From the sequence record PZ445436.1: DNA of 64,000 bases, one strand, 5' to 3'. The DNA comes from a phage. Position numbers and translations under genes: made by a program. Below, piece by piece: positions 59,963-63,741 of this stretch (its first letter is position 1; each line of letters begins with the position of its first letter). Below the pieces are notes generated by a model. That model saw nothing but the letters and a program-made list of their open reading frames with translations, was not told where the DNA came from and made no database searches.

Positions 59963-59996
59963 GTATAGTACCACAGAGGAACGGTCTTGTAAACAA
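59963..59996 (-). promoter_or_regulatory. Early promoter
   Basis: GTTTAC (59989-59994), 18 bp, TGG-TACTAT (59965-59970), conserved leader. Confidence 0.55.
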
Positions 59997-60311
59997 CTAA
60001 AAGAAACTTCTTTCACAATTTTTTCCACTGAACCACGCACTCACTGCTTTCTTAGTCTCAGGAGCAGTGTTATCCATAAACCATTCAAAGGCAGCCTTTT
60101 TATGATTCTGGAGGGCTTCTCGGGCTTTAATCTGCTCACGGTCTATTAACACTAACATATGAGCCTTTCTTGTCACCAGGGGCTTCTTATGATTTTTTGA
60201 ATACTCCCAATCATTTGTCCATCGCATCGTTGTTGCGAATTGAAGTACAGCTTCCTTAATCTTAGTTTCGTAAATTTCACGAGCCTTTGAGTATAACATC
60301 ACTACCTCCAT
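59997..60311 (-). CDS. Hypothetical protein (104 aa)
   Basis: ORF track. Confidence 0.45.
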   Translation of the reverse strand: MEVVMLYSKAREIYETKIKEAVLQFATTMRWTNDWEYSKNHKKPLVTRKAHMLVLIDREQIKAREALQNHKKAAFEWFMDNTAPETKKAVSAWFSGKNCERSFF

Positions 60312-60400
60312 TTACCAGTTTAATTCTAATCATCTTTTTGATGGCAGTCCATATAATCTATTTCTGAACTGCCTTTTTGTCATAGAAGGCCTCTTATGAA

Positions 60401-61369
60401 TTATTTCAGAAGAGTAACCTCAGCAATTTCTTCCCAACCGTTTTTGTCGGTCATAATAAAGTCAGCAAGATAAAGTGCAGTACGCAGTGAAACATTGCGT
60501 AAACGATTAACATTGACTTTCATCCATGATAATGCTTTATAAGTTTCTTCATCAGAAAGACCGCGTTTTTGCATCATGTCAGTTGAAAGAATAACATCTT
60601 CAACCCTGACCATAATTTCTTCATTAGTGTGAACACCCAAATCTAAATAAACTGAGCGGGAAACTAATGCTTGTAAATGTGGAGCAAGTTTAGTACCACG
60701 ATCTAATTCGCGGTCAATGTCAACGTTTGTGATAAAAACAATCGTTCCTTTAAATTCAAACTCACGCTCAATGCCTTTTTCTTCTAAGTAAGAAGATGCG
60801 GTGCTCCAGCAGACTTTACGGGTCTCTCCGGTGTCAAGAGCAGCTTTCAGAAGATTAAGAATGTCCATATCAGAGAAAACATCCACATCATCAATCAAAA
60901 GGACAGAATTCTCTTCACGATTATTCCAAAGCTGTTCATAAAGACCGATACCGGAGATTTTACCGTTAATGCTTTTATATTCAATGTATCCAATATCATT
61001 TGCTTTATTTAAAGCTTTATCTAAAGAATACGTTTTACCAATACCCGCCGCACCAGAGATAATTAATGAACGAATATTTCCATTAATAATACCATTCGTC
61101 ATCATTCCCATAACATTAAATCTTTTATTAATGCGGGTTTTCATATCTTCATACGATTCTTTAACTTCTTCAACTTTTACACCATCATATGAAATGTCTG
61201 ATTTGTAAACCCAAACACCGCGACGCTTACCGTCAATTTCAACAAAAACTTTACCATCTCCTTGTGCATCTACCGGAGCATTATCTGGAAACCATTCGCC
61301 TAAGAGCTCAAAAGTTCCAGAGATTTCTTTACCGAAGTAGATACCCTTATTGATAGTTACAGTTTTCAT
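60401..61369 (-). CDS. P-loop NTPase (AAA-like ATPase), 322 aa
   Basis: Walker A GAAGIGKT and Walker B-like LLIDDVD. Confidence 0.55.
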   Translation of the reverse strand: MKTVTINKGIYFGKEISGTFELLGEWFPDNAPVDAQGDGKVFVEIDGKRRGVWVYKSDISYDGVKVEEVKESYEDMKTRINKRFNVMGMMTNGIINGNIRSLIISGAAGIGKTYSLDKALNKANDIGYIEYKSINGKISGIGLYEQLWNNREENSVLLIDDVDVFSDMDILNLLKAALDTGETRKVCWSTASSYLEEKGIEREFEFKGTIVFITNVDIDRELDRGTKLAPHLQALVSRSVYLDLGVHTNEEIMVRVEDVILSTDMMQKRGLSDEETYKALSWMKVNVNRLRNVSLRTALYLADFIMTDKNGWEEIAEVTLLK

Positions 61370-61426
61370 TTTATTCTCCTTTGATTTGATAGGACTACTA
61401 TAACATAGTCCTATCAGTTTGTATAC

Positions 61427-61627
61427 TTATTTTGACATTTCTTCGATGTCACGACGATACCCGTCACGAACTTCACGAAGAGCTTCAAGGCCACACATAG
61501 GCTCGATACCTGTAATGTGAACTTGATTAATCTGATACTCTACATCTTCTAACTGAGCGAAAACATAACGACGTTCAGCTGCACAACCAGATTTAGCTTT
61601 ACCGAAACGTTTATTCAAAGTAGTCAT
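61427..61627 (-). CDS. Hypothetical protein (66 aa)
   Basis: ORF track; early promoter upstream. Confidence 0.4.
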   Translation of the reverse strand: MTTLNKRFGKAKSGCAAERRYVFAQLEDVEYQINQVHITGIEPMCGLEALREVRDGYRRDIEEMSK

Positions 61628-61663
61628 TTTGTATCTCCAATTTACTCATTTGTTTTGATAGGT

Positions 61664-61697
61664 CTATAGTATCAACAACTACAGACCATGTAAACCG
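61664..61697 (-). promoter_or_regulatory. Early promoter
   Basis: GTTTAC (61690-61695), 18 bp, TACTAT (61666-61671). Confidence 0.55.
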
Positions 61698-61714
61698 TTT
61701 TGTGAAAAATTTTT

Positions 61715-61745
61715 GAAATAAAAAAGGGAGCCCGAAGGCTCCCTA
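61715..61745 (-). terminator. Intrinsic terminator
   Basis: GGGAGCC-CGAA-GGCTCCC stem (61726-61743) followed on minus strand by UUUUUU. Confidence 0.55.
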
Positions 61746-62759
61746 TCATTTATAATAACTTCGGTGGTTTTCAAGATAGACCTTCTCAAGGAAGTCATCC
61801 CAGAAACTCATGTCTACTGTTTTAGGCATACCGTTCTTAGAAGCTTCAGTAGATGCTGCTTCTACTTGATCGACCACATCTTCCAAAAACTCTTGAACTG
61901 TTTTAAATGGATGTTTACCCAACTTCACGTCGAGAATAAATGGAGCATCTTGAAGTGGATAGACTAAGTCACCAGTTTTGTAAATTTCCAATAGTTGGAG
62001 TCCACCACGACAAGCATGACTCAAAGCTTTCCAGTCAATACCTTCATTGGCTTCAGCCTTACGAGCACGTTCACCGTATTCAGCATCTAATTTGTTCAGT
62101 GACTGCTTAAGCTCAATAAGAGAAAGCGTTGTCTGATATTTACGACCCAACACTGTGTAAAACGTCTGTGGGCCTGTTTTCTCATGATTATGGAACACCC
62201 ATTCACAGAATTCGTTTTCTGGAAGACGATGCTTAATATCTTCAACTTTAGTACGACGCTGCTTAATGGAACCGTCTTCTTGGTAATCAACCCATTGCTC
62301 AGGGATTTGATTAACTACTTTCAATACATCGCGTAATGCAGCCAAACGAGAACCCTTGACACCGTATTTAGAAGCTTGCTTGCGGACATATCCTAAATAG
62401 GATTTCATGTTAGTCGTATAAAAACGAGAACGGTTGTCTTGAATAAACTTCCACACATCAGGCAAATCAGATTTAACCACTAGTTCAGGTGGAGTATGAA
62501 GCATATCCAATGCTACAGTTTCACCATCTGCTGCTAATTTAAAGAAATATTTAAGACTGTATAGTTCATGGTCAATATCATCTTTAGTGTTTTTAGATGA
62601 TGTGTTGTTAGTGTTTTTACTCATGTGCTCTTTGACATTTCCGATAAGAATATCACGAGCAGGAGGAACAAAAATTTCTTTAAAATCTACATCAGATTCT
62701 GGGGTAGAAGTTCCATAAAGATGACTACCAAAATAGCTTTTCATTACTGTTTTCATCAT
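61746..62759 (-). CDS. Putative nucleotidyltransferase-fold protein (Pol-beta superfamily-like), 337 aa
   Basis: N-terminal GS-x10-DVD motif (GSHLYGTSTPESDVDF) with a later acidic residue; fold assignment by motif only. Confidence 0.45.
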   Translation of the reverse strand: MMKTVMKSYFGSHLYGTSTPESDVDFKEIFVPPARDILIGNVKEHMSKNTNNTSSKNTKDDIDHELYSLKYFFKLAADGETVALDMLHTPPELVVKSDLPDVWKFIQDNRSRFYTTNMKSYLGYVRKQASKYGVKGSRLAALRDVLKVVNQIPEQWVDYQEDGSIKQRRTKVEDIKHRLPENEFCEWVFHNHEKTGPQTFYTVLGRKYQTTLSLIELKQSLNKLDAEYGERARKAEANEGIDWKALSHACRGGLQLLEIYKTGDLVYPLQDAPFILDVKLGKHPFKTVQEFLEDVVDQVEAASTEASKNGMPKTVDMSFWDDFLEKVYLENHRSYYK

Positions 62760-63217
62760 TCAGCCTTATATTCAATAACAGGACATACTTTAGCTTTACG
62801 AGCTTTTAAAAATTCAACGATAATCGATTTCTTGGGTTGAATAGGAGGTAAACCTTTATACGCCCTATCAATATTTTCTATGTGTAAAGCATAATCCTTT
62901 TTCCATTTATAATCTTTATATTTTTCATGCAAATGTGCAGGAATAACAAATGAACCGATAATAAGTAAAACAACCAAAAGCGCAAGTATAAATGCTGATG
63001 GAAGAAGAGTCCATAAACTACCGAAAATAAGCCAACGTTGTAGGCTTTCTGCACAAATAATTGTTAGCCCTACGAGTATAGCACATCCAAAAATAGAAAC
63101 GAAAAATGTAGGAATGGCAATAGACCAAAAATATGCGCATAGTGTCTTAGGTCGTTGCCATTCATCGTTAAACAATTTGAATAATTTATAGTGCCAAGCG
63201 TTTTCATTAATAATCAT
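62756..63217 (-). CDS. Membrane protein (153 aa)
   Basis: ORF track; several hydrophobic segments. Confidence 0.45.
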   Translation of the reverse strand: MIINENAWHYKLFKLFNDEWQRPKTLCAYFWSIAIPTFFVSIFGCAILVGLTIICAESLQRWLIFGSLWTLLPSAFILALLVVLLIIGSFVIPAHLHEKYKDYKWKKDYALHIENIDRAYKGLPPIQPKKSIIVEFLKARKAKVCPVIEYKAE

Positions 63218-63219
63218 AA

Positions 63220-63741
63220 TTATCCTTTCATTGAAGGCGTAACAGTTGTTAAATACTTAATCATAGCTTCAGCTTCTGATTTTGATAATGAAATTTCTCC
63301 ATTGTTTTGACGAATAGAAATAAAATCCGGATGACGGTCACCACCAGCTTTTAAAACACACATATAAGTATCAACTTCATCTTCAATATTTGAAATGATT
63401 GAAGCAGTTCCACATGAATGCGGTTTTTGATAAATCAATGCAGCTTTTCTTCCGCCATTTGACTGTTCATAAACTTTTAATACATCAAACAAATCACTTC
63501 TTTTATCAATAGCTAAAATGTTATTTTCATCTTCAATGTTAAATCCTTCGGATACTTCATAAAGTGTCACCCATAAATCGCCAATATCAATAACAGCGTT
63601 CACTTTTCCATGACTTTCAAGAGCATGACAAATTTTCTTGATTTCGTCATAACTCATTTTAATAATATCATCTCCTTGAATAAGAAAGATGTCATTTTTA
63701 AATTCAACACGAATTAAACCACTTCCACTTGAAATAAACAT
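63220..63741 (-). CDS. Hypothetical protein (173 aa)
   Basis: ORF track; SD GTGAGGAAAT. Confidence 0.45.
   Translation of the reverse strand: MFISSGSGLIRVEFKNDIFLIQGDDIIKMSYDEIKKICHALESHGKVNAVIDIGDLWVTLYEVSEGFNIEDENNILAIDKRSDLFDVLKVYEQSNGGRKAALIYQKPHSCGTASIISNIEDEVDTYMCVLKAGGDRHPDFISIRQNNGEISLSKSEAEAMIKYLTTVTPSMKG

Follow-up and report, generated by a model that had tools for sequence, protein, structure and literature searches.

The RlaP (RNA-ligase-associated Pol-beta) family takes its name from gene neighbourhoods that hold RNA ligases or RNA end-healing enzymes. According to Iyer et al. (2021), nucleotidyltransferases of this family are predicted to put back, ahead of ligation, the nucleotides that RNases such as RloC have removed, and in jumbo phages they are distributed in the same way as the RNA ligases (PMC7824862). 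Wobble-nucleotide removal by RloC had been proposed in 2008 to defeat the tRNA repair of phages (PMC2610378). The chemistry of the family is known from two Pseudomonas RlaPs (P. fluorescens, P. aeruginosa), which come from rtcB-rlaP-rtcA operons and add one or two nucleoside monophosphates (NMPs) to RNA 3′-OH ends (bioRxiv 10.64898/2025.12.29.696909). According to the same preprint, these enzymes prefer Mn2+, accept all four nucleoside triphosphates (NTPs) when labelling rRNA, tRNA and cleaved tRNA, and do not use DNA or E. coli proteins as substrates. In a nicked tRNA mimic they favour the 5′ half, and they improve the aminoacylation of tRNA that had lost a nucleotide. In the crystal structure of PfRlaP, a nucleotidyltransferase domain is followed by a helical domain, the last helix of which packs onto the nucleotidyltransferase domain (10.64898/2025.12.29.696909). 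Here we describe a divergent relative of these enzymes, the product of the gene nrdC.11, and its neighbour nrdC.10 in a 64,000-nucleotide stretch of phage DNA (PZ445436.1). The whole stretch is referred to as the window.

The window ends in the "hyperplastic" early region between nrdC and tk (nrdC-tk) of a phage of the T2/T4 type (Tequatrovirus). From 60300 to 62900 its sequence shares 97-99% identity with hundreds of T2/T4-type phage genomes, the gene order equals that of T4 nrdC.8, nrdC.9, nrdC.10 and nrdC.11, and every gene lies on the minus strand. The 337-amino-acid (aa) product shows 98-99% identity to the NrdC.11 proteins of T2/T4-type phages. Judged by sequence and gene order, the 337-aa and 322-aa genes are assigned as the orthologues of nrdC.11 and nrdC.10, respectively:

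61746-62759, minus strand: nrdC.11 orthologue, predicted long-form RlaP (PF10127) nucleotidyltransferase of the Pol-beta fold, 337 aa (open reading frame (ORF), Pfam, PHROG 388, identity, conservation, AlphaFold2 model, fold matches, hhalign)
60401-61369, minus strand: nrdC.10 orthologue, predicted AAA+ ATPase, 322 aa (ORF, motifs, domain assignment)

The first ATG of nrdC.11 overlaps the stop codon of the upstream gene (aATGAtg) and the orthologues are annotated as 336-aa proteins from the second ATG; the true start is therefore probably at 62756, giving 336 aa. The assignment of the product as a nucleotidyltransferase, which the reading made from the sequence alone had put forward, is not new. 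As early as 2006, a match to a nucleotidyltransferase COG was reported for nrdC.11 and one to AAA ATPases for nrdC.10 (PMC1524935), the RefSeq label of T4 NrdC.11 is "nucleotidyltransferase", and the 2025 preprint includes the protein among the RlaPs. NrdC.11 is already annotated as belonging to its family, and that family has by now been characterised. In many GenBank records of T4-like genomes, "thioredoxin" is the name given to NrdC.10, NrdC.11 and the genes around them; in one, NrdC.11 appears as a "putative HNH homing endonuclease". The "thioredoxin" labels are evidently a systematic misannotation propagated from the "nrdC.x" locus names.

NrdC.11 is almost certainly a nucleotidyltransferase of the RlaP family. 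The protein matches Pfam PF10127 (RlaP, "RNA repair pathway DNA polymerase beta family") with an E-value of 3.1e-11 and 43.9 bits, the gathering cut-off being 23 bits, and PHROG 388 ("nucleotidyltransferase") with an E-value of 7e-138. All listed homologues carry a precomputed PF10127 match. At E<=1e-3 the family comprises 3508 cluster representatives (50% identity clusters); 832 clusters match at E<=1e-30, nearly all of them full-length proteins of 300-350 aa. The GS-x10-DxD signature noticed in the sequence-only reading, GSHLYGTSTPESDVDF, occupies residues 11-26 (G11-S12, ten residues, D23-V-D25). Across 146 diverse cluster representatives, conservation is 100% for G11 and S12, 99% for D23 and D25 and 97% for the third carboxylate, D63, and all five residues are invariant in alignments A1 and A2. 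A further conserved set lies in the C-terminal half (R231, D242, W243, K244, H248, R251, K279 and G281) and includes the motif D242-W-K244-x3-H248-x2-R251. Alignment of the long clade with the canonical short RlaPs by hhalign (E 2.7e-5) places GS on GS, D23/D25 on D43/D45 and D63 on the invariant D82.

An AlphaFold2 model of NrdC.11, built on 115 sequences, reached a predicted local distance difference test score (pLDDT) of 87. It shows a nucleotidyltransferase alpha/beta domain (1-110), helices (119-150), a beta insertion (155-209) and a helical bundle (214-336). D23/D25 open the strand 24-31, and D63 lies in the strand 62-68. The model thus has the Pol-beta nucleotidyltransferase fold followed by a helical domain, and together with the PF10127 match and the conserved carboxylates it bears out the superfamily that the sequence-only reading had named. 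The nearest solved folds are HalB and enzymes resembling kanamycin nucleotidyltransferase (KNTase), not cGAS/DncV. PDB chain sequences were searched with three queries (NrdC.11 by itself, the long-form profile A2, the short-form profile A4); nothing meaningful was returned, and no RlaP structure was found among the chains searched. Like the Pseudomonas RlaPs, NrdC.11 scores above the PF10127 threshold, carries the GS...DxD...D catalytic set and has a nucleotidyltransferase domain followed by a helical domain. It differs from the canonical RlaP (~260 aa) in being ~70 residues longer, in the beta insertion at ~155-209 and in a C-terminal half that finds no match, and it belongs to cluster 5, whereas the Pseudomonas RlaPs belong to cluster 1a.

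The genomic neighbourhood of the cellular relatives points to RNA repair. With each prokaryotic species represented by one genome, a scan yielded 156 NrdC.11 relatives. The best 80 loci were kept, their neighbouring genes were clustered, and representatives were scanned with Pfam. The relatives in these 80 loci share 32-54% identity with NrdC.11 over the full length. In 24 of them a canonical short RlaP is encoded immediately downstream of the long form (Pfam E 4e-73, whole profile). At least one RNA-repair gene lies within 7 kb in 16 of the 80 loci, namely RtcB in nine, Pnkp (kinase-phosphatase-ligase) in seven, Hen1 in six and Ro60/TROVE in four. We infer that this share of 20% is far above chance placement, because a span of 14 kb represents less than 0.5% of a bacterial genome. 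Four cellular genomes carry the following operons:

L142, 3055-8748: Hen1-Pnkp-long RlaP-short RlaP operon
L155, 1894-8784: Hen1-Pnkp-long RlaP-short RlaP operon
L156, 5385-11066: Hen1-Pnkp-long RlaP-short RlaP operon
L122, 2558-15383: Ro60-RtcB-long RlaP-short RlaP-Hen1 operon

In its neighbourhood, the NrdC.11 clade is like the RlaP family. What is new here is that the long clade itself, and not only the canonical RlaP, is embedded in Pnkp/Hen1 and RtcB operons. It is also new that the long clade in cells often stands beside a short RlaP, which it accompanies and does not replace, whereas the T-even phages carry the long form only, far from their ligase genes. The phages in which short RlaPs turned up were phiKZ-like jumbo phages, not T4-like phages. 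The tandem of long and short RlaP suggests that two different RlaPs cooperate, or act on different ends, in cellular RNA repair.

We propose by analogy that NrdC.11 possesses the chemistry of the Pseudomonas RlaPs, and we consider it fairly likely that it adds nucleotides to the 3′-OH of broken RNA and thereby aids tRNA repair during infection. D23, D25 and D63 would hold two divalent metal ions, and one or two NMPs would be transferred from NTPs onto the 3′-OH of the broken RNA. PseT would first heal the ends, converting a 2′,3′-cyclic phosphate or a 3′-phosphate into a 3′-OH. NrdC.11 would then rebuild the nucleotide trimmed by a host ribotoxin, for example the wobble base removed by anticodon nucleases of the RloC type. 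The seven-nucleotide anticodon loop would thus be restored, and Rnl1/Rnl2 would seal the break afterwards. T4 encodes PseT, RnlA and RnlB elsewhere in its genome. The ligases RnlA and RnlB are 5′-phosphate ligases and need the 3′-OH that RlaP produces (10.64898/2025.12.29.696909). The product of NrdC.11 would therefore be directly usable, unlike in the RtcB case that puzzled the authors of the preprint.

A close functional parallel is the T4 pathway of PseT and Rnl1, which counters the anticodon nuclease PrrC. It belongs to the same phage lineage and presumably serves the same purpose, and the intermediates fit: the product of PseT, a 3′-OH, is the substrate of RlaP, and the product of RlaP, again a 3′-OH, is what Rnl1/Rnl2 need. 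In contrast to PseT and Rnl1, which are experimentally established, NrdC.11 stands outside the described pathway and is not linked to their genes. Unlike them, it would presumably be needed only after the loss of a nucleotide, as with damage of the RloC type. The beta insertion and the C-terminal domain of the long form might confer a distinct specificity, either for the correct wobble nucleotide of a particular tRNA or for a HalB-like priming of oligonucleotides, which would make the clade more than a redundant RlaP, although we see only a slim chance of this.

Several observations weigh against the proposed role in tRNA repair. The Pfam match spans only profile positions 23-142 of 249, so that homology over the full length of RlaP is not seen, and the hhalign match covers only residues 5-93 of NrdC.11, at a probability of 75%. 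A helical domain at the C terminus is predicted in the model, and its sequence homology to the helical domain of RlaP is not detectable. NrdC.11 is therefore regarded as a divergent long-form subgroup. Its C-terminal half, including the beta insertion, is specific to the clade, and the choice of substrate could differ. The preprint itself places T4 NrdC.11 in PF10127 cluster 5, "of unknown function" (10.64898/2025.12.29.696909). No RNA-repair gene lies near nrdC.11 in the window or in T4, where pseT, rnlA and rnlB are more than 50 kb away. Among four distant phage contigs with Pfam-annotated neighbours, three (L082, L083 and L084) carry DNA-metabolism genes and no ligase near the homologue. 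Finally, the segment nrdC.11-mobD.3 can be deleted from T4 (PMC9825161), and one T4 record, OL964745.1 (H90; Escherichia phage T4, 159,752 bp), keeps only the last 39 codons of nrdC.11, which fits the published deletability. Any role of NrdC.11 must therefore be conditional on the host.

The link between NrdC.11 and RNA-repair genes is looser in phages than in cells, but it is visible. Repair genes were found within 10 kb of the homologue in several phage loci: an RNA ligase at a distance of 3.4 kb in L003 (the fourth of the distant contigs above), polynucleotide kinase and a CCA-adding enzyme in L066 and L068, a CCA-adding enzyme in L057, Rnl1 in L067 and L077, and RtcB in L075. In Rheinheimera phage Barba19A, the gene for a CCA-adding enzyme is one small gene away from the homologue.

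The enzyme might also act on RNA 3′ ends for other purposes than tRNA break repair, such as tailing of host or phage transcripts to alter their stability or mending of the 3′-CCA of tRNA. The broad labelling of rRNA, tRNA and cleaved tRNA by the Pseudomonas RlaPs would suit such a role, as would the homologues that in several phages lie beside a CCA-adding enzyme and not a ligase. The addition of only one or two nucleotides and the preference, in a nicked tRNA mimic, for the 5′ half over the 3′ end (10.64898/2025.12.29.696909) argue in the other direction, and so do the conserved cellular partners, which are ligases and Pnkp/Hen1. Taken together, we regard these other roles as unlikely. The architecture of the protein, a nucleotidyltransferase domain followed by a HEPN-like helical bundle, is the same as in kanamycin nucleotidyltransferase/ANT(4′) and its relatives (1kny, 6p06, 3c18). 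NrdC.11 could on this ground be an enzyme of the KNTase or minimal nucleotidyltransferase (MNT) type, which nucleotidylylates either an antibiotic-like small molecule or a protein, such as the HEPN toxin in MNT-HEPN systems. All matches of this type are far below the family thresholds, none being to an antibiotic nucleotidyltransferase family, and the helical domain lacks the Rx4-6H RNase motif of HEPN proteins, the residues conserved there being K244, H248 and R251. Moreover, E. coli proteins and DNA are not substrates of the Pseudomonas RlaPs (10.64898/2025.12.29.696909), and the clade has RNA ligases and RNA end-healing enzymes as its genomic partners. Such an activity is very unlikely. For the lack of the same motif, the idea that the C-terminal bundle is itself an active HEPN RNase was rejected.

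The sequence-only reading had suggested, as a speculation, that the two proteins could counter a host signalling defence. In this case NrdC.11 would make or mimic a nucleotide or oligonucleotide signal, in the manner of a CD-NTase or of Hailong HalB, and so subvert CBASS, Thoeris, Pycsar or Hailong. HalB (PDB 9dbh), a nucleotidyltransferase that synthesises oligodeoxyadenylate, is indeed among the nearest folds, with 17% identity over 126 residues. The likeness is limited to the generic nucleotidyltransferase core common to KNTase-like enzymes. With its 217 aa, HalB has neither the beta insertion nor the long helical domain of NrdC.11, and no relationship was detected between the two at the sequence level. 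When profile A2 was compared with the PDB sequences, HalB included, only two unrelated matches at chance level (E 0.3 and 0.83) were obtained at E<=1. None of CD-NTase, cGAS and DncV is among the top structural matches, there is no CD-NTase family among the Pfam matches and no PADLOC match at E<=0.1, and the NCBIfam and PADLOC scans gave no usable matches. No HalA-like partner was found beside the NrdC.11 relatives in the loci examined, and the operons that hold the cellular members of the clade are those of RtcB and Pnkp/Hen1 and not of defence signalling. We therefore consider a signalling or anti-CBASS function highly improbable and retain RNA 3′-end repair as the preferred role of NrdC.11.

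The same reading had joined the nucleotidyltransferase with the P-loop ATPase two genes downstream into a functional pair. The ATPase is present as described, with one 66-aa ORF in between. NrdC.10 carries a Walker A motif at 105-113 (SGAAGIGKT), a Walker B motif at 156-163 (VLLIDDVD) and the sensor-1 residue N215. Among 54 homologues, no variation is seen at G106, G109, G111, K112, D160 and D161. The protein consists of an N-terminal beta domain (1-61), an AAA+ core (73-245) and a helical lid (249-320). The Walker A, Walker B and sensor-1 elements and the alpha/beta core with its helical lid are those of the AAA+ ATPases; all Pfam AAA models stayed below the cut-off. In a comparison with the MoxR (NorQ/CbbQ), initiator (DnaA, Cdc6/ORC) and clamp-loader groups no clade stands out, and NrdC.10 is regarded as a generic AAA+ ATPase. 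The region between the two genes contains the following elements:

61725-61744, minus strand: intrinsic terminator hairpin AGGGAGCC-TTCG-GGCTCCCT followed by TTTTTTATTT (scan; the same in T4 and in genome G50, where it is an annotated terminator)
61666-61694, minus strand: T4 early-type promoter GTTTACA-17-TACTAT (scan; -35 and -10 conserved in T4)
61427-61627, minus strand: 66-aa ORF (orf66, PHROG 6200) between the early promoter and nrdC.10 (ORF; alignment with T4 and G50)
61386-61425, minus strand: hairpin with a 12-bp stem (61386-61417) overlapping a weaker promoter-like site TATACA-17-TATAGT (61425-61397) (scan; alignment with T4 and G50)

The terminator (61744-61725) begins two bases past the nrdC.11 stop codon and consists of an 8-bp GC-rich stem and a T-run. 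It is predicted to end the nrdC.11 transcription unit, and the early promoter is predicted to restart transcription toward orf66 and nrdC.10. Since the terminator and the promoter both lie between the two genes, nrdC.11 appears to be the last gene of the upstream unit and nrdC.10 to belong to the next one. The terminator and early promoter that the sequence-only reading had ascribed to one block are thus both real consensus matches, but they are situated between the genes and do not frame a block.

In a two-component system of NrdC.11 and NrdC.10, loading, remodelling or regulation of the nucleotidyltransferase would fall to the ATPase, or both proteins would modify nucleotides in host takeover. 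In 38 of the 79 viral loci, NrdC.10 is encoded downstream of NrdC.11 on the same strand at a distance of 0.1-3.3 kb; Tequatrovirus, Mosigvirus-like, Klebsiella and Acinetobacter T4-like phages are among them. The catalytic motifs are retained in both proteins. Nevertheless, a strong terminator and an early promoter separate the genes in T4, G50 and the window, and the spacing is variable and tolerates inserted ORFs. In the remaining 41 viral loci NrdC.10 is absent within 10 kb of NrdC.11, including relatives at 82% and 69% identity and all those below 51%. A homologue of NrdC.10 is found in none of the 80 cellular loci; RNA-repair genes are the conserved partners there. The NrdC.10 of Vibrio phage D533 is encoded among clamp loader, dUTPase and helicase genes of a replication module, with no nucleotidyltransferase nearby. 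A functional pair is accordingly quite improbable. Because of the terminator and the promoter, the two genes are best taken to lie side by side through a conserved local gene order, without forming a functional module, and NrdC.10 is a syntenic neighbour of NrdC.11 within Tevenvirinae-type phages.

The 66-aa ORF is the sole ORF between nrdC.11 and nrdC.10 in this phage. In T4 the two genes are directly adjacent, without this ORF, and the early promoter directly precedes nrdC.10. G50 contains the ORF, which is present in only one of the 79 IMG/VR loci. Relative to T4, the ORF and the second hairpin/promoter-like element are inserted behind the early promoter in this phage and in G50. The element, just upstream of the nrdC.10 ribosome-binding site, apparently came in together with orf66. 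Promoter/stem-loop cassettes are thought to shuffle small ORFs in the hyperplastic regions of T4-type phages. The insertion, within the span 61370-61700 (minus strand), looks like a cassette of this kind. A second copy of the early-promoter consensus (TTTACA-17-TACTAT, with TG upstream) is located between nrdC.9 and nrdC.8 (59965-59993, minus strand); early promoters thus punctuate the region every few genes. Upstream of nrdC.11, two further genes share its transcription unit:

63220-63741, minus strand: y05I-like putative transcription factor (Pfam T4_y05I_N E 2e-34, T4_y05I_C E 7e-23)
62756-63217, minus strand: predicted membrane protein of 153 aa (PHROG 944), the stop codon of which overlaps the nrdC.11 start

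Two other arrangements were observed around distant homologues. Genes for a UDG-family protein of ~500 aa and for an SNF2/ResIII helicase are found repeatedly a short way downstream of the RlaP homologue (L082, 9284-12396; L095, 1614-4799; L096, 7846-11036; L106, 8561-12098). Some of the environmental contigs with these neighbours are binned as bacterial metagenome-assembled genomes, yet they are phage-like in look. In L083 (5350-10698), a 61-kb phage-like contig, an IS605/TnpB-type element (OrfB_IS605, Cas12f1-like_TNB) is inserted directly behind the RlaP homologue and is flanked by a duplicated kinase-SSB gene block.

The idea of a repair function of the NrdC.11 type has been published before (PMC7824862; 2025 RlaP preprint). 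If the proposed role is correct, NrdC.11 would be the third component of the classical two-enzyme T4 tRNA repair pathway of PseT and Rnl1. It would also answer the question raised in 2008 of whether phages reverse wobble excision of the RloC type (PMC2610378).

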